Positions 58-11,571 of a DNA stretch of 11,571 nt are shown piece after piece (position 1 is the stretch's first letter; each line of letters opens with the position of its first letter). This DNA is from a virus: UHGV virus genome UHGV-0116702, one strand, 5' to 3'. A program made the position numbers and the translations under genes. The notes beneath the pieces are model-generated. The model did no database searches. It saw only the letters and a program-made list of their open reading frames with translations, and was not told where the DNA came from.

Positions 58-1720
58 AAGGTCTAAATACACTATGAGGATGATTAGGGGTTGGTAGATG
101 ATTCGGATGAAGCATCCTCATTACAAGACCAACTATAGAACTACCTGTTAATAACAGGACAATATCAGGTGAATCCCTATTCAATTTAAAGGCATTTTCC
201 CAAGTATCTAAGCAGTTTTACACAGATTCTATGCAGTATCGGTATAGTCTCTTTTTACCCTAACTTATTGAAATATATAGAGAATCTGTGAAGTCTCTTT
301 TCAGGGAACTATGCAGGGTGTTAGTCGTTCCTCTCTCGACCCTTAGAAAAGTGCTATATACAGGACTATATAACGCTATTCATGCAGTTGGTCACCATAT
401 GTTACAGTTGCAAGAGATAACAATCAGCTATGTGAAAGTTAGGAAGTGATGGTTACAGTTGATTCGGTTAGTTCTAGGAATCAACCTCATAGTTCCTTCG
501 TAGTTCCTCTTAAAAAATCACTTACAGACACCTTAATATCTATACAGATTTCATGTAGAACACGATTAGTGCGTAAAACAGCTATTATGTTAAAAACGCA
601 CTGTATACGTATCAGTACTGATTTATAAGGGTTTTGTGTATTGGATGATAAGAGGCTATGCAGCACCTTGAGAGCATGTCTTCTAAGTCATTGATACATA
701 AGGTCACAGAAGTTTGTGTCTGTTACAGAGAAAACTGGATAGGATTTCACAGAACTATAAAATGTTACAGCTATTGATAGGTTAAATCTTCTTGATAGAT
801 GCTTTGAAGTGTGGTGAAGGTTTCTTGAGGTGGAGCTAAACAGATGCTATGAAGAAAGTCAATGATATTTTAACTGCTTTTGCAAAGGGGGTGCTATATC
901 GTGAATCTGGGGTACTTAACAGCCATCAATTGAGTGTAGATATTTTTTAAGATTATCGGTGAAGGGGAATGTAGAGGGGGGTACTACGATTTTTATAAAA
1001 ATTTTCAGACTCTGAAAAGTTGCTGTACAGATTTTGCACAATCTTACCAAGCCTCATAGAAAGCTCTGTAGCGAGTTTTAACCCCATTTTTAGGGGTAAC
1101 CTGTAGGTATGTACCACCCACCTTAAAATAAAGGGGTAAAATCGCTTAGAATGCGTTACAGAGCGTCTGAGAAGCTATATTCACAGATTTTACTAAAACC
1201 TCAGACTTTCTAAGTGGTCTTTTTAACAGGAGGGGTTCCCCTATGGTCACATATCCCCTCTCTCGCTTAGTGAGCTACACAGACCTAGAGAACATGCTCT
1301 GTAACGCCTTCACAAACATTGACTAAGGTCAACTTCATAAACTCAGAGTTAAGTTACCTTGAAAGATTCTACCAAGAAACTACACAGGTATTATTTAGTC
1401 TGACTGTGAAGAGATGTTTAACGGGAGGAAGAGAACCATGAAAACCGAAGGTAGGTTCTATCTTAACAGTGACTGTAAGAGATACCTGAAAAGATACTTA
1501 ACAGAACTACCAAGAAGAGAGGGAACGATAAAACCAGAGGTAGTGACCTTGTTAAGTAGGTCGTTTCAAAGTCTCTTAAAAGTCTGTTAAGTAAGGGCTA
1601 TGTGAACAATCTTACCATTTTGTCAATGCTTTTGTCTTTGACCTAAATCAATAAAATGTATCGTTTGATGTGCTTTTAAACAAAATAGCTAAAAAATCTT
1701 TTTAGAGGGGCGCTTCGCTT
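58..1720. other. ORF-poor, motif-dense non-coding region (candidate ori / ncRNA / regulatory hub)
   Basis: The six-frame track shows only one 60-aa ORF in 1.66 kb, and it has no RBS. Region contains the conserved box copies at 1063-1075, 1145-1171 and 1296-1308, recurring CTGTGAAGAG and TTACAG/TTAACAG motifs, and a 17-bp perfect palindrome TTTTCAGACTCTGAAAA at about 1003-1019. Confidence 0.5.
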
Positions 1721-3123: not shown

Positions 3124-3136
3124 TAGTTTTCCTTGT

Positions 3137-3235
3137 AAGACGCTCTCAATCGCATTCTGACACAAAAAGTACCTGACCTTATGAGTTGACCTTAAGAGGC
3201 TGTTTAACTCGTTACAGAGCGATTGAAGAGGTCTG
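3137..3235. repeat. Inverted-repeat-bracketed element, copy 1 (conserved left and right arms, divergent interior)
   Basis: Left arm AGACGCTCTCAATCGCATTCT (3138-3158); right arm CTGTTTAACTCGTTACAGAGCGATTGAAGAGGTCTG (3200-3235). Arms are imperfect reverse complements sharing GCGATTGAG and GTCTG. Interior contains a doubled TGACCTTA. Confidence 0.55.
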
Positions 3236-3420: not shown

Positions 3421-3900
3421 ATGAACGACAGAGAATTTAGAGCGATGCTTCAGGCATCAAGAGAACGCAAAGGCATTGACGAAGTAATTCGGGCAATTAC
3501 ACCGAGGAGTCGTTATATGCCAACCAGAAAGAGCACCCAGAACACTATTAAAAATTATTTGGCTAACTTCGACAGCTACGAGCAACTACCAAGTAAGCTT
3601 GATGATATTTTCATTGGATTCTGTAGAAGTGAAGGCCACCCGAAATACAACAAAAAACTATTTTATCTTCTAAAGAATCTTGACGAAATTAACTCAGCTA
3701 CCGTGACAAATTATCTTCAGCGACAAGCAACCAGACTTAGTTATGAATTACCAAGCGATAAATATTGTGCATTGCTTGCTGTAATGTGTGCAAAGCTAAT
3801 TGGTATTGTTGAACATCATATTGCCGTTGGTAATATTGAGCCAATGGAAAACGAGCAACCAGACTTTGAGTTTGACCCGTATATTTTGGAGGAATTTTAA
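3421..3900 (+). CDS. Hypothetical protein (159 aa) with acidic C-terminal tail
   Basis: ATG with AAGGA SD about 11 nt upstream; first gene after the candidate promoter; ends ...ENEQPDFEFDPYILEEF. No family recognised by eye. Confidence 0.6.
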   Translation: MNDREFRAMLQASRERKGIDEVIRAITPRSRYMPTRKSTQNTIKNYLANFDSYEQLPSKLDDIFIGFCRSEGHPKYNKKLFYLLKNLDEINSATVTNYLQRQATRLSYELPSDKYCALLAVMCAKLIGIVEHHIAVGNIEPMENEQPDFEFDPYILEEF

Positions 3901-3901
3901 A

Positions 3902-4183
3902 ATGAAAAACAAACACACATTAACCCGCATTTCAGAGGAAGCTTTTAACGAGCTTACCAGAATTAAACGAGCTACTAACTTGCCTCATCAAACTGTAATG
4001 CAGCTTGCAATTGCTAAAGAGGTTACTGAGTCGGATTTACTGAAATATCCAGTCTCTAAAGGTCGTAAACACATCCGAATTAGTCAGGACGCTTTAGCTA
4101 CTTTGAAGGCGCTTAACGGCTTTAAGATTGATATTGCCCGTCTATTGAGTCTTAAAATTCACAAGCTGTCTCTGGAGGTCTGA
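3902..4183 (+). CDS. Hypothetical small protein (93 aa), possibly DNA-binding
   Basis: ATG at 3902 lies 1 nt after the upstream stop, with GGAGGA about 12 nt upstream. Preferred over the track's TTG start at 3800, which overlaps the upstream gene. Two internally similar segments (TLTRISEEAFNELTRIK / KHIRISQDALATLKAL) suggest a repeated motif; the DNA-binding idea is speculative. Confidence 0.55.
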   Translation: MKNKHTLTRISEEAFNELTRIKRATNLPHQTVMQLAIAKEVTESDLLKYPVSKGRKHIRISQDALATLKALNGFKIDIARLLSLKIHKLSLEV

Positions 4184-4185
4184 TT

Positions 4186-4458
4186 ATGAAGCAATGGCGA
4201 GATGATATTAAACGGTTCTTTGCAACTTACTTCATGATTAATTACGAAACAGGAATGCTTGAATGGATTGATGGTGGAGAGGTTAAGACAAGAGATGACG
4301 CTTACGGTAATCCAATGATTCGTTATGGCACTCGTGATTATTATGTGAAATATGTCATCTGGTTTTTGCATCATGAAGTTCAGGCAACTAAAAAAATTAT
4401 CTTCAGGGATGGTAATAAAAGAAATTGCCACCCAAACAATTTACTACTGGAGATTTAA
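4186..4458 (+). CDS. HNH_3-family (homing-endonuclease-like) small protein, possibly catalytically degenerate
   Basis: 90 aa; ATG 8 nt after GGAGG and 3 nt after the upstream stop. C-terminal YYVKYVIWFLHHEVQATKKIIFRDGNKRNCHPNNL matches the HNH_3 pattern (YYVHRLV...VxHIDGNKxNNxxxNL), but by my manual alignment the HID histidine is Phe (IIFRDGNK). Confidence 0.55.
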   Translation: MKQWRDDIKRFFATYFMINYETGMLEWIDGGEVKTRDDAYGNPMIRYGTRDYYVKYVIWFLHHEVQATKKIIFRDGNKRNCHPNNLLLEI

Positions 4459-4658: not shown

Positions 4659-4692
4659 TCCGAGACTTTAAGAGAAATTAGAAAAACAGCTT

Positions 4693-4816
4693 CTCAGACG
4701 CTCTCAATCGCATTCTAACGCAAAAAACTATCTTATTTTAGGGTGGGTAATACCACTGTACAGGCTACCCCTGAAAAAGACTGTTTAGCTCGTTACAGAG
4801 CGATTGAGGAGGTCTG
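4693..4816. repeat. Inverted-repeat-bracketed element, copy 2
   Basis: Left arm CAGACGCTCTCAATCGCATTCT (4695-4716); right arm CTGTTTAGCTCGTTACAGAGCGATTGAGGAGGTCTG (4781-4816). Arms are nearly identical to copy 1 (right arm 35/37) while the interior differs in sequence and length. Ends 22 nt before the ATG at 4838. Confidence 0.55.
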
Positions 4817-4837: not shown

Positions 4838-5161
4838 ATGAACAATTACGAATTACAGATTTTCGTTGATAGCGACACCGCTATGATGATTCAGGCTTTC
4901 ACTGATGTAGGTGTTAGCATTGACTTTGACAGGCTGTTAAGGCTAATGGCTGATAACTCAGAAACAATTGAAGATTTTATTCAGTCGGTGGAGTTTAACG
5001 AGCCTCGAATGATGCTACCAATTAAAGACAGCAACATGAAAAGATTGGTTATCGAGCAAACGAACAAATTCAGCATTAGCCCTGAAAGATATCTCAAGGC
5101 AGCTATAGCAATTTTGTACGCTGACAATATTCTGGTGACGGATTCTGTGAGGATTCACTAA
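4838..5161 (+). CDS. Hypothetical protein (107 aa)
   Basis: ATG 9 nt after AAAAAGGAG SD; no recognisable motif. Confidence 0.6.
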   Translation: MNNYELQIFVDSDTAMMIQAFTDVGVSIDFDRLLRLMADNSETIEDFIQSVEFNEPRMMLPIKDSNMKRLVIEQTNKFSISPERYLKAAIAILYADNILVTDSVRIH

Positions 5162-5708: not shown

Positions 5709-6419
5709 ATGACAAACGATTTATATATTAACGGTAAAAAGGTTGATAGCTTCGGTGACTGGTCGCCACAGACTGAACATCCAGCTATCACTATCCAGCG
5801 TAAAGAACATGATGAAAGAATTGCACTTGAGCAAGAAATCCGAATGTCACCAAAGGTAATTACCTTTGTAGCTCCTGAGCCTCAAGAGATGCCTGATATT
5901 TGCAAAACTCAAGCATTACTTGAGCTTGAGCGTGAATATTACCCACTGCTGAAAGCACAAAGAATTAAACTTGATATTGCTTACGACAATGTGAAGAACT
6001 TTGAAGAGACTGAAAAGCCAACTGATTTTGATATTGAAGTGGAAATTAGACAAAACCCATTCGTATATTACTCAGTTGAGGATAATGATGGTTTTGGTAC
6101 AGCAAGAGAGAATATCTCAAAAGTTCTTCAAAACATCCCTGAAGGATTCCGTTTAATTGATGTTAGACCAGCTTCACGCGGTACAGGTTCATATATTTTA
6201 CTGTCTGATAAAACAGATGAAGAGATTTGTCAGTTAGCTGAAAAGAATCTACTTGAGCGTCATAGCAAAAAATTAAACAGATTTAAGCAAGAACTTGCTA
6301 ACCAGCTTCAGGCTATGAAAGACCTTATTTCTGCATATGAAACGCAGAAGAAGGTTGCTATGCAGGCTGATATTGAGCAGTTAGTGAAGATTTCTCAGAA
6401 ATACGCAAAGGCACTTTGA
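5709..6419 (+). CDS. Hypothetical protein (236 aa), acidic with helical C-terminal region
   Basis: ATG about 10 nt after AGAGGA SD; long uninterrupted ORF; no family recognised by eye. Confidence 0.65.
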   Translation: MTNDLYINGKKVDSFGDWSPQTEHPAITIQRKEHDERIALEQEIRMSPKVITFVAPEPQEMPDICKTQALLELEREYYPLLKAQRIKLDIAYDNVKNFEETEKPTDFDIEVEIRQNPFVYYSVEDNDGFGTARENISKVLQNIPEGFRLIDVRPASRGTGSYILLSDKTDEEICQLAEKNLLERHSKKLNRFKQELANQLQAMKDLISAYETQKKVAMQADIEQLVKISQKYAKAL

Positions 6420-6444
6420 CTATGAATTAAAAAGGAGGTGATGA

Positions 6445-6648
6445 ATGTTTGATTTAACGGAACGCTATGAACTTATTAAAGCAATTAGCGAGAGATTGAA
6501 AGAACAACCCAACAAACCAAAACGAATCAAATCATCCACCTCTAAACAAAATAACAGAATCAGAAAAATTGCTAAATGGTGTCTGGATAGATTACCAAGT
6601 GATTGTCAGATTGTCGGTGAAGATGGCAATTATTATCTGATTAGGTAA
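6445..6648 (+). CDS. Hypothetical small basic protein (67 aa)
   Basis: ATG 5 nt after AAAAAGGAGG SD; lysine/arginine-rich centre (KPKRIKSSTSKQNNRIRKIAKW). Confidence 0.55.
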   Translation: MFDLTERYELIKAISERLKEQPNKPKRIKSSTSKQNNRIRKIAKWCLDRLPSDCQIVGEDGNYYLIR

Positions 6649-6673
6649 AGAATTGGTTGGGTGAAAATCTACG

Positions 6674-6714
6674 GGAGAGATTATCGAGTGACATCGGTAG
6701 TTTCTCCTTTTTTT
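6674..6714 (+). terminator. Candidate intrinsic terminator
   Basis: GGAGAGA (6674-6680) pairs with TTTCTCC (6701-6707) with one G-U pair, then T7 (6708-6714). The 20-nt loop is long, so confidence is moderate. Confidence 0.4.
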
Positions 6715-6736
6715 GTATGTGTGCTACATGAAATCT

Positions 6737-6787
6737 GTAAAGCTAATATCCACACTGAAAAATAGAATTTACGTAGCTCACGCTTAA
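6737..6787 (+). repeat. Direct repeat A (51 bp, 38-bp perfect core) immediately upstream of the tape-measure gene
   Basis: GTAAAGCTAATATCCACACTGAAAAATAGAATTTACGTAGCTCACGCTTAA. Core 6750-6787 is identical to 9024-9061. Contains a -10-like TAGAAT with no good -35. Confidence 0.8.
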
Positions 6788-6804
6788 AGAGGTGAAAAAT
6801 ATGA

Positions 6805-8985
6805 ATGAGCAAATTCACAGTTGATAGTTTTATCGTTGAACTAGGCTTCAATGAAAACGTTATTAAGGGCTTGCAAAGAGTTGAAAAGGCAGCTTTGCAG
6901 TCAGCACAAAGAATTGAACGTAATTTGAATAGAGCGTTTAAGGTCGATACCAAGCAACTTGACAGCAACCTGACAAGTTCTTTAGGGCAACTTGAAAGGA
7001 AGTTTAATAAGACCTTTGACAAGATTGAACAGAGAGCAAGAAATACTAAAGCTTTCCAGTTTACCACCAGATTTAATGACACTGTTAATCCTCCAAAACA
7101 ACCGAGACAGCCACGAATTAGCGGCAACAGAGCAATCACAGCAGCGCATAGCGTGAATATGTCTAAGCTTGGTGATATTAATCCGCTGATGGCTAAAATG
7201 TTTAAAGCACAGTATTACAGCTTAAGCGGTAAGGCTGGTAATATTGGAAGTGAAAAGTTTAACGCTGAACTTGCAAAATTAAATCAATCTCTTCGTGAAA
7301 CGTTGAATAAACTCAGGTCACAGACAAAGACCACCAGCATTAACAATACAAGCGACGCATTTAATAATCTTGCAAGCAATGCAATCAAGTTATCTGGTGC
7401 ATTTTACTCTGTGATGGGTGCTCTTAACGCTTACAAGGCCATTATGAATGCAGGTCTTAAACGAGATTCCGCACAGAGAGCCGCTAAGTTTGTACTTGGT
7501 GATAAAGCATCTGAAGCTGAGGTATTTATTCGAAATTTAGCAGACAAGACAGGTCTTAATATCTCTGAAGGGCTATCAAGCTACGCTAAGTTTGCAGCAG
7601 GTGCTCAGGGTTCTATGTCACAGGAACAGACACAGGAGCTATTTGGTAATGCAACGGCTATGAGTCGCTTAATGGGGCTTTCTAACGATGAGCTAAACGG
7701 CATTTTGAAAGCATTTGAGCAGATGGCGAGCAAGGGCAAGATTCAGGCTGAAGAGCTTCGTGGACAGTTAGGTGACCGTATGGCTGGTGCATTTAAGCTA
7801 TTCGCTGAAGCATTGGGTATGACTGCTACAGAGCTTGATAAAGCGATGAAAGACGGGAAGATTTTAAGTAGTGATACTCTCCCTAAAGTCGCTAAACAGA
7901 TGGGCTTGATGATTGATAAAGCGGGTGGCTGGGCTGAAGTCGCTAAGAGCACTCAGACAGCTTTAGGGAAACTGGCTAACAACTGGGATGATACGATGGT
8001 GAAAATCTTCTCAGGTTCACAGGATGAGCTAAACGGCTTCTTATCCAGCCTGAGTAACCTGCTTAGTGAAATGGGGATGAGTTCATCTATCGCTGGTGAT
8101 GCTATCGGTGGACTTATCGACATGCTTAAAGCTGGTGTGGATGACATCCGTATCTTTAACAATCACCTTGAAGGCTGGATTCTACAGACTAAGAAGTTCT
8201 ATTACAGCCTTGATGACACTAAACGAAAACTACTTGATGAAGTCGGTGATGGTTTTATCAACTTCGTCAAAGGTCTTGCTATAGCGTTATCTGCAAAGAC
8301 ACTATTCAGTGCTGCTACAGGGGTTATAAACCTGACAAGAGCAATCACAACGTTAGGTACAAGAGCTAATCAGGTTGCTGGTCAGGTAGCTACTGGTAAA
8401 GGTGGTGGAAAACTGAAAGGTGTAGCTGGTGGTGTAGGTAGTGCTCTTGCAATTGGTTATGCTGATGACGGTTATGAAACAGCGTTAGCATTAGCTTCAA
8501 TGATTCCACAAATCAGAGGCGTCACTCTTGGTTTATATGCATTGAAGAAAGCACTGGATTTTATGAATCAGGAAGTAGTCAAAAACGCTAATATGCATCC
8601 ATCTGGGGTAGGTGTGGGTAGTGACTTTAATCCCGTGTATTCTGGTGACCCTAATAAACCGAATATGATTAACGAAGGATGGGGTAGAATTTTTAGTTCA
8701 ATGGGTGAATTGTTTAACAATGCCACAATGAATATTGCAAGATTCAATCATCCAGAGTTAAACAACATTAAGCAAGATTCAGCATTAACGAGTGCAGATA
8801 TTCAGAGTCTGAGGGATGAAATCTCTGCTTTAAGTAAGCGTATTCAGGAGCCTGTGAAAGTTTCCTTGGGTGGTGAAGTTGCCATTAAACCAGATGAAAC
8901 CAGCTTTATGACCTTTAGCAGTAATATCTACGACCAATATGCAGAAGCTACGCTATTAAGTTCATCATTCCCAGAAGATGATTGA
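6805..8985 (+). CDS. Phage tail tape-measure-domain protein (726 aa)
   Basis: N-terminal coiled-coil-like segment, then LNGILKAFEQMASKGKIQAEELRGQLGDRMAGAFKLFAEALGMTATELDKAMKDGKILSSDTLPKVAKQMG, which matches the conserved tape-measure core. Downstream there are glycine-rich hydrophobic stretches (ATGKGGGKLKGVAGGVGSALAIGYA). SD AAGAGG is about 13 nt upstream. Confidence 0.7.
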   Translation: MSKFTVDSFIVELGFNENVIKGLQRVEKAALQSAQRIERNLNRAFKVDTKQLDSNLTSSLGQLERKFNKTFDKIEQRARNTKAFQFTTRFNDTVNPPKQPRQPRISGNRAITAAHSVNMSKLGDINPLMAKMFKAQYYSLSGKAGNIGSEKFNAELAKLNQSLRETLNKLRSQTKTTSINNTSDAFNNLASNAIKLSGAFYSVMGALNAYKAIMNAGLKRDSAQRAAKFVLGDKASEAEVFIRNLADKTGLNISEGLSSYAKFAAGAQGSMSQEQTQELFGNATAMSRLMGLSNDELNGILKAFEQMASKGKIQAEELRGQLGDRMAGAFKLFAEALGMTATELDKAMKDGKILSSDTLPKVAKQMGLMIDKAGGWAEVAKSTQTALGKLANNWDDTMVKIFSGSQDELNGFLSSLSNLLSEMGMSSSIAGDAIGGLIDMLKAGVDDIRIFNNHLEGWILQTKKFYYSLDDTKRKLLDEVGDGFINFVKGLAIALSAKTLFSAATGVINLTRAITTLGTRANQVAGQVATGKGGGKLKGVAGGVGSALAIGYADDGYETALALASMIPQIRGVTLGLYALKKALDFMNQEVVKNANMHPSGVGVGSDFNPVYSGDPNKPNMINEGWGRIFSSMGELFNNATMNIARFNHPELNNIKQDSALTSADIQSLRDEISALSKRIQEPVKVSLGGEVAIKPDETSFMTFSSNIYDQYAEATLLSSSFPEDD

Positions 8986-9010
8986 TTTAACGGTGTTCTA
9001 CGTGAATAAA

Positions 9011-9061
9011 GCAAAGTTAATACCCACACTGAAAAATAGAATTTACGTAGCTCACGCTTAA
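9011..9061 (+). repeat. Direct repeat B (copy of repeat A) immediately downstream of the tape-measure gene
   Basis: GCAAAGTTAATACCCACACTGAAAAATAGAATTTACGTAGCTCACGCTTAA; 48/51 identical to 6737-6787, offset 2274 bp; lies about 80 nt upstream of the ATG at 9142. Confidence 0.8.
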
Positions 9062-9141
9062 CAGAGAAAATACTTATATATCAAAGGCTTGGTTAAAAAT
9101 GATTAAAATACACTAAGCCTTTGAAATCAAAGGAGAATTTA

Positions 9142-9930
9142 ATGATTTTTAGCAATCAAATCCGCTACAGTGGCAAAGATGGCGTTTACTTCCACTTAAG
9201 AGATAATGTAGATGCCTTCTTAACCTTATCAGCAACTGAGAACATGGAATTTGATAGCCCTATGCAGGTGACTACACAGAACATGCAATCAGGGCAAACC
9301 GTCACAGATAATGTGCAAAGAGCACCCAGAACAATCACTATTAGCGGTGTCGTTGTAGTTGGCTATGAAGGGAGCTTATTATTAACTCGTCAGGGTCAAT
9401 TAGTAGAGAACTTCATCGACACTCTTGAAAACTGGCGTGACCAGAAACAAATTATTTCGGTCATCTGTAAAGACGGAATTAAAATTGATGATTCCATTAT
9501 CACAAGTTTTAAAGCCTCTAAAGATGTTGGAATTTCAAACGGATTAAGAATCCAACTAACTTTTCAGGAAATTAACTTCAGAGCTGTTGTGGGGCAGACT
9601 GATATCTCGGCTGCAACTGGAAAAGCCGCGACTACGAACGATGGTGGTGTGACCAGTAAGAAGAATGCAGGTAACGTGACCACTGAACGCAATAACGCGC
9701 CTATGCTATCGTGCAAAGAGCTAATGAGTATTAGCGATGTATCCGGTTACGCTCCAGCTATCAGAAATGATATTCTCGATGCTCAGATTAAGTGTAATAA
9801 GGCTTGGAAGCTGGACTATTCAGACTTAACAGAAGCTGAAAAAACCAACGTCACCAATGCTAATAGTAACGCTGGTCGGGTAGCTTCAAAGCTTAAAAAG
9901 TACTCAGTGAACCCTCACAAAAAATACTAA
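9142..9930 (+). CDS. Hypothetical protein (262 aa); possibly tail-associated on positional grounds only
   Basis: ATG 6 nt after AAGGAG SD; the track ORF from 9121 is the same frame from an upstream TTG. Sits directly after the tape-measure gene, where siphophages usually encode the distal tail protein, but I see no diagnostic motif. Confidence 0.55.
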
Positions 9931-11450
9931 ATCTCTACTACATCAACATCTATTAAACCCCTCTCAGTGACTTCAGAAAGCGACTGTATAGCCTCTGTAA
10001 CGTCCTCTGAGGGGTTTTCTGTTATTGATAAGGTGATTGACTTACCATTGTGAAAAGTTACTTTACAGCGACGTTTAGCAGTATTTAAAACGACCTCTTT
10101 AACAGCACTTTTGATTATCAGTTGTGCTTCAATTCTCCCCGCCTTTGTAGTCAAGTCACAATCAGACAAACACCCCACATCAATAGATTTAAGGCGTTGT
10201 GTCTCCTTCTCGATATCCGCATCAACCTGTGATAGCTCACCTTTTAACTGCTTTAGTTTGATGGTAATAGCTGACAAATCTTCAATTTCAAGTGATAGCT
10301 GTACCAGCTTTTCAATATTGCTTGAGATGTGTTCACGGTGTAGCCTCAACATATCTATGGTATTCGTCGTATCGCTATCAAATCGGTCAAGACGAGATAG
10401 CAGAGTAAGCAATGTACCATCGGTTTGCTTACGTGAAAGTCCTTTAGCACTACAACGGTTTTCATTACGAAGAGGACAACGATAAATCCCGTTTCTTGTA
10501 TCACTAAAGCCTGTGATAATCAGAGCATGACCACATTCAGAACAACGGATAACACCTTTAAAGAGATTCACACTCAATGGTTTATCTGAAACAGACCTCT
10601 TTCCATAACGAGAATGTGATAGTTGTTGAACTTTGTAGAATGTTGTTTCATCTATAATTGCAGGATAATAACCAGCTATCTCCTCACAGCCTTTAGGTGT
10701 GAAGTAACCAATTACAGAGCGATTCTTCAGAAGGTCTTGTACTGAGGTTTGACCAAACTTACCAGCTTTATATTGGTTAAGCGTCTGGTGACCTTCATCA
10801 TTAAGAGTCCTGACAATCGCCCAGATAGATTTGCCCTCTAACCGTAGCTGAAAGCACCTCTTCACAGTTTCTACCTTCTCAGGTATTACAGAGAAGCTTT
10901 TACGGTCATCATTCAGCCTTAACCATGCAGGACAACGCCTAGAAATCTTGATACCAGCTTTAGCAGCTTCTTTCTTTGCATCCCATGCAGCTTGTATACG
11001 CTCAGCCTTACGTAATGATTCCTCATGCGCCCTTTGCATTATCAGAATGCTTTTAATCAGGGATAACGGGTCTCTTAAGCTTTCCTTTGTGTAATGTTCA
11101 CCATCGGACAAGGTGACTACATCTACACCAGAGCGAAGAATGTTTCGTAATAGCTCACTTGCTCGGTCTACGGCCTGACGTGACAAACGGTCTAAACTCT
11201 CGATTAGTAGTGTATCACCAGCTTTAACAAGCCCTTTCTCGATAGCGGTTAAAAAGTCACCTAAGCCACCTTTCAAGTGCTTACCAGTGAATCCACTCAC
11301 ACCTAAATCACGGAAGGATAAATCTTGGTCAAGGTAGTACTCAGGTTGAGCCTTAAGCCAGTCATTAACCATCTTAGACTGTCTGCGTAGTGAATCACCT
11401 CGGGATTGCTTCTCAGATGAAAACCTGATGTAAGAAATGGCACGTTTCAT
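9927..11450 (-). CDS. Large serine recombinase (integrase, 507 aa)
   Basis: N-terminal resolvase-type catalytic domain with the nucleophile motif YIRFSSEKQ and arginines in DRLSR; central recombinase region; Cys-rich zinc ribbon CSECGH...[11 protein letters not shown]; C-terminal coiled-coil-like segment. GAGGTG SD 4 nt before the ATG. Confidence 0.9.
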
Positions 11451-11505: not shown

Positions 11506-11571
11506 CGTGTCTAATAAAAATCACCCGATTAACGCCGCGCTGATGTAAACCGCGATTAAGCGTTTGTTCCT

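Follow-up and report, generated by a model that had tools for sequence, protein, structure and literature searches.

Phage satellites that supply tail proteins of their own are known from Vibrio cholerae. The PLEs, which have the lytic myophage ICP1 as their helper, are satellites integrated by a serine recombinase (Mathur, Boyd et al., Nature 2026, PMC12987554). The PLE tape measure protein (TMP), chaperone (TAC), and hub protein of the baseplate (BhuB) have 20%, 20%, and 41% identity to those of ICP1. These PLE tail proteins replace the phage's in chimeric tails, and deletion of the PLE tmp gene cuts transduction by 96–99.9% (PMC12987554). Other satellites or putative satellites are reported to carry tmp as well: PLE-like elements and some cfPICIs (PMC12987554, Extended Data Fig. 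10), and the EPIPs of Mycolicibacterium (PMC12822802). Here we analyze UHGV virus genome UHGV-0116702, and "the window" refers to this whole stretch of 11,571 nucleotides. The window contains an island that encodes a TMP and, next to it, a baseplate protein, the tube initiator (TI), both of which are related to proteins of Felix O1-like phages. With somewhat more confidence than doubt, we favor the reading that the island is a satellite-like element of these phages whose own TMP and TI would be substituted into helper tails. Felix O1-like phages are strictly virulent and lack an integration module. They are classical Salmonella typing phages and are widely used in biocontrol and therapy cocktails for E. 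coli and Salmonella.

The window is one complete 11,468-bp insertion in yecE. Its first and last 55 bases are contiguous in uninterrupted yecE, and when both ends are aligned to the empty site the two matches share a 7-bp core, AAAATCA. The left chromosomal flank (1–48) is a fragment of this DUF72 gene and is identical to uninterrupted yecE in essentially all E. coli genomes. The core follows as attL (49–55) and is repeated at the right end as attR (11517–11523), after which the right yecE flank (11524–11571) again matches the empty site. The island integrase is a 507-residue large serine recombinase encoded on the minus strand at 9927–11450. It has Resolvase, Recombinase, and Zn_ribbon_recom domains and matches the phrog_95 integrase family at 4e-77. 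An earlier note on this DNA had spoken of a small island, which is borne out by the 11,468-bp insertion, the core at both ends, and the serine recombinase. No DNA similarity to phage integrases was found in the phage collection searched. An integrase in common with the Shiga toxin (Stx) phages that use yecE was considered and rejected; Stx-phage records are the only phage matches to the window outside the TMP-TI region and cover the 55-bp yecE flank only.

The island begins with a 1.6-kb stretch without long open reading frames (ORFs), followed by a Dam-like methyltransferase gene and a series of small unknown genes that includes a 90-residue HNH protein. A 236-residue coiled-coil protein, a 67–71-residue protein, the TMP, the TI, and the recombinase complete the order. 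The island has two features by which satellites are recognized: an integrase of its own with precise attachment site (att) junctions, and an incomplete set of virion genes together with genes related to those of a specific helper. The hallmarks of PICI, cfPICI, and P4-like satellites (tyrosine integrase, alpA, pri-rep or alpha primase, small terminase, capsid, and sid, psu, or delta genes) were absent from all island ORFs in Pfam, PHROGs, and NCBIfam searches.

The tape measure protein and tube initiator

The TMP is encoded on the plus strand at 6805–8985 by an ORF with an ATG start and a product of 726 residues. The earlier note had identified a tape measure protein at this position, and the assignment holds at curated cut-offs. 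The protein scores 81 bits against the Pfam family TMP_3 (PF20155; gathering cut-off, 41) and 58.6 bits against TIGR02675 (cut-off, 21.35). It matches 13 PHROG families, 11 of which are tape-measure families, and the best of these is phrog_4036, 'tail length tape measure protein' (5e-95). The best relative of solved structure is the TMP of the Felixounavirus Bas63, gp017 (PDB 9ndy_F, 4e-75 over residues 1–553). The earlier note had proposed both TIGR02675 and PF10145 as profiles for this protein; the first matches as given above and the PF10145 profile has no match in the 726-residue TMP. Its comparison with the size range of siphophage tape measures was off target, as the relatives are myophage TMPs of 735–742 residues.

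The TI is encoded on the plus strand at 9142–9930 and is a Dit-like baseplate protein of 262 residues (PF21821, 2.5e-20; phrog_3721, 4e-129; PDB 9ndy_A, 1.8e-113). Its probable start is the ATG at 9142, and the mechanical ORF runs from a TTG at 9121. TI is 73% identical to gp119 of the Felixounavirus garuso, and the structure matched, 9ndy_A, is the Bas63 tube initiator gp018. In the Bas63 structure paper, gp17 is the TMP and gp18 is the tube initiator (PMC12609058). The earlier note started from a lone TMP without tail tube, chaperone, or baseplate genes. The lack of a baseplate partner is wrong, as the adjacent gene encodes this Dit_like homolog of Bas63 gp018. The remainder of the statement stands: no tube, sheath, chaperone, capsid, terminase, or lysis genes were found among the island ORFs by Pfam and PHROGs searches or by tblastn against a Felixounavirus genome.

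All phage matches to the TMP-TI region (window 6783–9675) are to Ounavirinae, that is, Felixounavirus and its relatives. These phages infect Escherichia, Salmonella, Shigella, Citrobacter, and Erwinia, and the genera that carry islands are host genera of the Ounavirinae. The phage gene order is the TMP gene followed immediately by the TI gene, as in the island. The whole island was compared with garuso (85,798 bp) at the DNA level and by tblastn of every stop-to-stop ORF of at least 40 residues. TMP and TI are the only two genes common to island and phage at either the DNA or the protein level. Among the database records, GU169904.1 ('Staphylococcus phage SA1') has a Felixounavirus-type TMP and TI at 75000–77752, with 88% DNA identity in the matched patches, and this record looks mislabeled or chimeric.

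The island TMP aligns end to end and collinearly with the Felixounavirus TMPs, including the C-terminal LLSSS[FY]PE tip, and conservation is concentrated in three regions. Residues 1–45 are about 75–80% identical to the phage TMPs. A central block at about residues 283–365 is 60–65% identical to the phage proteins overall and its core is near-identical. The C-terminal tip reads LLSSSFPEDD in the island and LLSSSYPEEE in the phage. Positions that are invariant among five deep island lineages and three phages fall mainly in residues 1–45, residues 301–360, and the C-terminal tip. In Bas63, the 25 residues at the end of the TMP are in contact with the spike and the hub (PMC12609058). Patches of the island TMP gene are 76–79% identical to phage DNA; an apparent identity of about 90% in these patches was rejected as a length-weighted mean dominated by TI. 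Synonymous divergence (dS) between island and phage TMP genes is saturated over the whole gene, the conserved blocks included, which indicates that the blocks are kept by selection and not by recency.

Over their full length, the island TMPs have 29–33% identity to three Felixounavirus TMPs, whereas the phage TMPs are 90–97% identical among themselves. At this level the 726-residue protein falls outside the high-identity Felixounavirus TMP orthologue group. The island TMPs form a clade of their own with 41–86% identity, and the deep lineages are 41–50% identical to each other. The TMP genes are intact in all nine islands examined, with dN/dS of 0.11–0.34. The 726-residue ORF is predicted to be a functional tape measure protein because the genes are intact, dN/dS is in this range, and the invariant positions cluster at the contact regions.

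These data also bear on the proposal of the earlier note that the TMP could be a relic of a degraded prophage. An inert remnant of this kind, or passively captured phage DNA, would be in line with the phage origin of both genes and with the lack of recognizable function in most of the island. The island is not a prophage remnant because nothing else in it is Felixounavirus-like and the phages are strictly virulent. Only two adjacent genes are common to the island and these donors. The same architecture is found at three or more att sites and across genera, every one of the nine TMP genes is intact and under the selection given above, the att junctions are precise, and an excised circle of a family member exists (below). 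We therefore reject the relic and give passive capture a nearly negligible probability.

The TI gene has a different history along its length. The core of TI (residues 46–165, numbered from TTG 9121) is 97–100% identical to the phage protein. The core has a dS of 0.08–0.21 relative to phage vB_EcoM_Shy and the flanks are saturated. The core tract is polymorphic among islands, some of which carry a non-phage version, and the phages are 98–99% identical to each other in the N-terminal part of TI that contains it. The low dS of the core, the saturated flanks, and the restriction of the polymorphism to the islands point to recent gene conversion from phage to island as the simplest reading. Such a tract would require contact of island and phage DNA within a single cell and survival of the recombinant island through a virulent infection, either with the surviving cell or by leaving it in a particle.

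The C-terminal arm of TI, about 100 residues long, is island-specific by comparison with the phage records. It is 96% conserved among E. coli islands and 43–46% identical to every phage, with a best value of 46.5% among 50,697 phage records. The arms of the phage proteins are 92–96% identical to each other. Two cysteines and a terminal SVNPxKK motif are retained in the island TI. The Bas63 TI is a hexamer with a tube-like fold and a C-terminal extension of about 100 residues that spans the baseplate beside the spacer proteins (PMC12609058).

The pattern of retained and divergent regions can be read in a second way, as anti-phage defense by poison subunits. The element would not be packaged, and its TMP and TI would act as dominant-negative mimics that join the baseplate and tube-initiation complex of the Felixounavirus by way of the conserved contact surfaces, so that tails are stalled or wrongly built. 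Phage yield would fall and neighboring cells would be protected. The contact regions of TMP are kept while the rest has diverged, and a poison TI would be expected to look as the island TI does, with a tube core identical to that of the phage and a foreign arm that spans the baseplate. The island TMPs are far more diverse (41–50% between lineages) than the phage TMPs (90–97%), as in an arms race. Tail assembly is a known target of defense, as with Rta in PLE11 (PMC12987554), and no packaging or capsid genes were found in the island. However, the 96% conservation of the TI arm and the full length of the TMPs, which are under purifying selection throughout, suggest a constructive role, and gene conversion that restores a phage-identical TI core favors compatibility over sabotage. 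The element also excises as a circle and has reached several att sites and genera, which means that it transfers somehow. Poison subunits are unlikely as the whole explanation, and they are compatible with the substitution of helper tails, since PLEs do both.

The lengths of the proteins bear on a third explanation, that the island TMP replaces the helper TMP and thereby alters tail length or ejection. TMP length sets tail length, and the PLE11 TMP, which is 95 residues shorter, gives tails that are 10 nm shorter (PMC12987554). The TMPs of the island family have 688–726 residues compared to 735–742 in the phages, and compared to the phage TMP the N-terminal coiled region of the island TMP is shorter and its hydrophobic C-terminal part is longer. 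Length was estimated at about 1.3 Å per residue, based on 742 residues for 26 discs of 38.1 Å in Bas63 (PMC12609058). By this estimate the present copy, 9–16 residues shorter than the phage TMPs, would shorten the tail by 1–2 nm. This is less than one 3.8-nm disc and no visible change is expected. The change in tail length suggested by the earlier note is thus not favored for this copy, and reprogramming of tail length or properties is an improbable main function.

TMP and TI are organized as separate units in the island. A terminator-like hairpin with a 15-bp stem and a T run (6673–6708, plus strand) separates the TMP unit from the upstream genes. The first copy of a 69-nt direct repeat (6719–6787, plus strand) lies directly upstream of the TMP ribosome-binding site. 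The second copy (8993–9061, plus strand) is upstream of the TI gene, is 87% identical to the first, and is conserved there in five other islands. The 5' motif of the repeat, GTGTKCTACRTGAA, has three copies in the window compared to zero expected, the third being inverted at 550–563 (minus strand). The spacer between TMP and TI is 156 nt in the island, where each gene has its own upstream element, whereas the genes overlap in the phage. The position and conservation of the 69-nt repeat suggest that it is probably a shared operator or promoter of the tail genes. Scans for sigma-70 promoters and terminators were at chance level except for the hairpin at 6673–6708.

An independent TMP unit, with its own upstream element and a preceding terminator, would also suit a protein that acts apart from virion assembly. 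In this explanation TMP is a membrane-associated superinfection-exclusion factor in the uninfected cell, or an injected effector as the earlier note had considered, and would interfere with the TMP channel of the incoming phage and not with assembly. Ejected TMPs form the DNA conduit or line it, and a hydrophobic, glycine-rich region is present in the island TMP at about residues 485–580. Such a role leaves unexplained why TI is co-conserved in every family member, and the conserved hub-contacting C-terminal tip and N-terminus point to assembly contacts. We consider it very improbable.

The island family and a proposed model of tail substitution

The region from the 236-residue protein gene to the end of TI (5709–9930) was searched by megablast against 5,426 complete E. 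coli genomes. Matches were found in up to 464 of them at up to five places per genome; most are mosaic, with 80–95% identity, and none are on plasmids. Three PLSDB records of 4.8–4.9 Mb (NZ_OL790696.1, NZ_CP141089.1, and NZ_CP134663.1) have an intact yecE site and are evidently chromosomes filed as plasmids. The same gene order is found at yecE in other E. coli strains and, with a different recombinase, between yciI and tonB. A Salmonella island (L010) with a 547-residue recombinase lies beside a flavodoxin-like FMN-reductase gene and yccJ. The architecture is thus the same at three or more att sites, each of which goes with a different recombinase, and the family extends to Shigella, Citrobacter, E. 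albertii, and E. marmotae. We judge it an evenly balanced question whether these islands constitute a large new satellite family of Enterobacteriaceae, carried by several percent of E. coli genomes, that parasitizes virulent Felix O1-like myophages through a TMP/TI swap and evolves by repeated recombination with the phages.

An excised form was sought through the attP junction. The 35-nt junction predicted from joining the right end to the left occurs once in the metagenome collection, in a contig of 11,473 bp (L019; ERZ1090866 NODE-760). This contig is a complete circular permutation of an island variant and carries the recombinase, the TI, a 711-residue TMP, the 67- and 236-residue protein genes, and the methyltransferase. 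Its ends abut, when mapped on a related island, inside the replication-initiator-like gene. The last ~40 nt of the contig are a Nextera sequencing adapter (CTGTCTCTTATACACATCT...). The contig sequence indicates that an excised circular or head-to-tail form of a family member exists, a tandem integrated dimer being a less likely alternative. IMG/VR matches to the 236-residue protein are contigs of 13.7–50 kb with the module of 236-residue protein, TMP, and TI, and are uninformative on packaging.

In the favored model, the island would excise and replicate when a Felixounavirus infects the cell. The island TMP and TI would each be expressed from a unit of its own, behind a copy of the 69-nt element, and would dock onto the hub, spike, wedges, tube, sheath, and chaperones made by the helper. 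The docking surfaces of TMP would be its N-terminal 45 residues, the central block at about residues 300–360, and the C-terminal LLSSSFPEDD tip. Those of TI would be its tube-like core and the terminal SVNPxKK motif. TI would form a hexamer on the baseplate hub, from which the tube polymerizes around TMP, and the product would be chimeric tails of essentially helper length. These tails may serve island-carrying particles, divert assembly from the phage, or both. The island-specific TI arm and island-specific stretches of TMP may form a matched pair that sets tails primed by the island apart from those primed by the phage. Of the roles that the earlier note had suggested for the TMP, substitution for the helper tape measure and sabotage of assembly are favored by the collinear TMP, the retained contact regions, the TI partner, and the PLE precedent. 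Gene identities, island boundaries, family distribution, selection on TMP, recombination with phage, and the excised form are established by the comparisons above; from these we infer induction by the phage, incorporation of TMP and TI into tails, packaging and transfer of the island, and any cost to the phage.

Several points weigh against the substitution of helper tails. The model was drawn from sequence, and no published description of the island family was found in the literature searched. Neither a small terminase nor any resemblance to phage termini or pac sites came out of the comparison with garuso. No capsid-size remodeling gene was recognized among the island ORFs, no replication gene is recognizable in this island copy, and no tail chaperone was found upstream of TMP, unlike in the PLEs. 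The repeated motifs upstream of the island genes are absent from the phage genome, so nothing ties island expression to the transcription program of the phage. To fill an 86-kb headful capsid, a genome of 11.5 kb would have to be packaged as a concatemer, or the capsids would have to be small, and there is evidence for neither. The contig with the attP junction comes from a variant and shows excision, or possibly a tandem form, and not packaging, and the attP junction is absent from the viral contig collection.

Remaining genes, repeats, and variants of the island

The 236-residue coiled-coil protein (5709–6419, plus strand) is island-specific and its gene is always just upstream of TMP. At 90% identity its sequences group into 3,101 clusters from Escherichia, Shigella, Salmonella, and Citrobacter, and Pfam, NCBIfam, and PHROG searches gave no match. 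The AF2 (AlphaFold2) model has a mean pLDDT of 71 and consists mostly of long helices; Foldseek searches of BFVD and the PDB with this model gave nothing below E = 0.09. NCBI labels the protein 'transposase' in hundreds of genomes, a label without support given the predicted fold of a long coiled coil. The 67-residue ORF (6445–6648, plus strand) lies directly upstream of TMP, is present in all family members, and has no family match. Neither of these two ORFs has similarity to the Felixounavirus chaperone or chaperone extension, or a sequence match in the PDB.

The left end of the island is a 1.6-kb region without an ORF above 60 residues (143–1720, plus strand). It is 82–88% identical in islands with different recombinases and att sites, has no match in Rfam, and contains no annotated genes in relatives. 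This region is a candidate origin, packaging signal, or regulatory region. Some variants have an extra 191-residue resolvase/invertase in the left region (Resolvase, 1.5e-37), as in contig L019 at 2000–2575. Three E. coli matches (H55, H56, and H62) are annotated 'recombinase family protein x2', and the same left region is gene-free in the window.

A Dam-like N6-adenine methyltransferase fused to a C-terminal helix-turn-helix (HTH) domain follows at 1721–2389 on the plus strand (PF05869, 2.7e-13; HTH_7, 1.7e-5; phrog_111, 2e-24). A search of PADLOC-DB gave an orphan methyltransferase match for this gene only and none for TMP, TI, or the unknown ORFs. In the island of E. coli O145 RM9154-C1 (L003, 3272–5713) the Dam-HTH gene is split into two short coding sequences, and the fragments are followed, a few hundred bp downstream, by an inserted IS3-family element. 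Insertion sequence elements interrupt further island copies (H89, H93, and H109). Two tandem units of about 94 nt, 85–86% identical, are located at 2649–2826 between the methyltransferase gene and the next block and are a possible origin or iteron region.

The small genes between the methyltransferase and the coiled-coil protein are all on the plus strand. The 159-residue ORF at 3421–3900 has no family match in Pfam or PHROGs and sits in the slot of a replication-initiator-like gene in the Salmonella relative. This gene (L010, 6653–7618) encodes a 321-residue protein that matches HTH_36 at 9e-7 and phrog_8102/270, 'replication initiation protein', at about 1e-10, and it takes the place of the unknown 159/185-residue ORF of the E. 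coli islands. The exchange of sequences at this position suggests that the family has an exchangeable replication module. The 93-residue ORF at 3902–4183 is an annotated coding sequence in relatives and has a weak DndE-like match of 0.0018, below the cut-off. The 90-residue ORF at 4186–4458 encodes a small HNH endonuclease (HNH_3, 4.4e-5, just below the cut-off; phrog_959, 4.7e-5), and PGAP names its relatives 'HNH endonuclease'. The 107-residue ORF at 4838–5161 is a conserved coding sequence in relatives, with no match in Pfam, PHROGs, NCBIfam, or PADLOC.

A second repeated motif is distributed over the left half of the island. The 12-mer CGTTACAGAGCG occurs four times compared to 0.01 expected (1154–1165, 1295–1306 on the minus strand, 3210–3221, and 4791–4802). 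Copies are embedded in repeats of about 100 nt, at 3132–3235 and 4690–4816, that precede the gene blocks from 3421 and 4838. By their placement, the CGTTACAGAGCG repeats resemble another group of shared regulatory sites or iterons. Mimicry of phage promoters was considered and rejected, as neither the 69-nt repeat nor the CGTTACAGAGCG motif has a counterpart in the phage genome.

Comparison with known systems

Satellite-encoded TMPs and chimeric tails have been known since 2026, and the novelty here lies in the host and the helper group, in the partner protein, and in the element family. If the island does substitute its TMP and TI into helper tails, a satellite system of a virulent phage would for the first time be on record in E. 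coli or Salmonella. Tail-assembly manipulation, demonstrated only in the Vibrio PLEs, would then extend to the best-studied hosts, for which genetic tools exist, and to a helper with a solved virion, Bas63. A common element with matched copies of two central tail parts may be an overlooked factor in the success or failure of Felix O1-like phages, and it would be an unrecognized determinant of the performance of therapy and biocontrol phages of the Felix O1 type. The conserved regions of TMP (the N-terminal 45 residues, residues 300–360, and the C-terminal tip) and the TI arm mark candidate interaction surfaces. These surfaces could explain the choice between TMPs during assembly, which the PLE work left as a question. 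A natural record of an arms race would be provided by the recent gene conversion from phage to island.

P4-like elements and PICIs resemble the island in being integrated, small, common in E. coli, and dependent on a helper for structural proteins. They differ from it in having temperate helpers and no encoded tail parts. EPIPs, PLE-like elements, and cfPICIs have in common with the island a TMP with an incomplete set of tail genes, and EPIPs also use a serine integrase. EPIPs and cfPICIs carry a small terminase, adaptors, scaffold, and major capsid protein, which the island lacks, and their helpers are temperate. EPIP tails are also much longer than those of the helper.

A further close counterpart is the pair gp017 and gp018 in the virion of the Felixounavirus Bas63 (PDB 9ndy). 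The TMP-TI order is the same and the lengths are close (726 compared to 742 residues for TMP and 262 compared to 265 for TI). The TMP N-terminus, the central TMP_3/TIGR02675 block, and the C-terminal tip are retained, as is the TI core at 97–100% identity. Unlike in Bas63, the genes are chromosomal and part of a mobile island, TMP has 29–33% identity, and the TI arm is island-specific.

Of the known systems, the tail module of the PLEs is the nearest, and the comparison with it is one of function only. The island is smaller (11.5 kb), its host is of the Enterobacteriaceae, its helper group would be the Ounavirinae, and the partner of TMP is TI and not a hub protein. No chaperone gene was found in the island and no Rta-like function was identified, and its TMP is nearly of helper length, so that no tail shortening is predicted. 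Like a PLE, the island is a small chromosomal element with a large serine recombinase and a tie to a strictly lytic myophage, and it has no tube, sheath, fiber, or capsid genes. In both systems a diverged TMP (20% identity in the PLE and 29–33% in the island) is paired with a less diverged baseplate protein (BhuB at 41% and TI at 73%).

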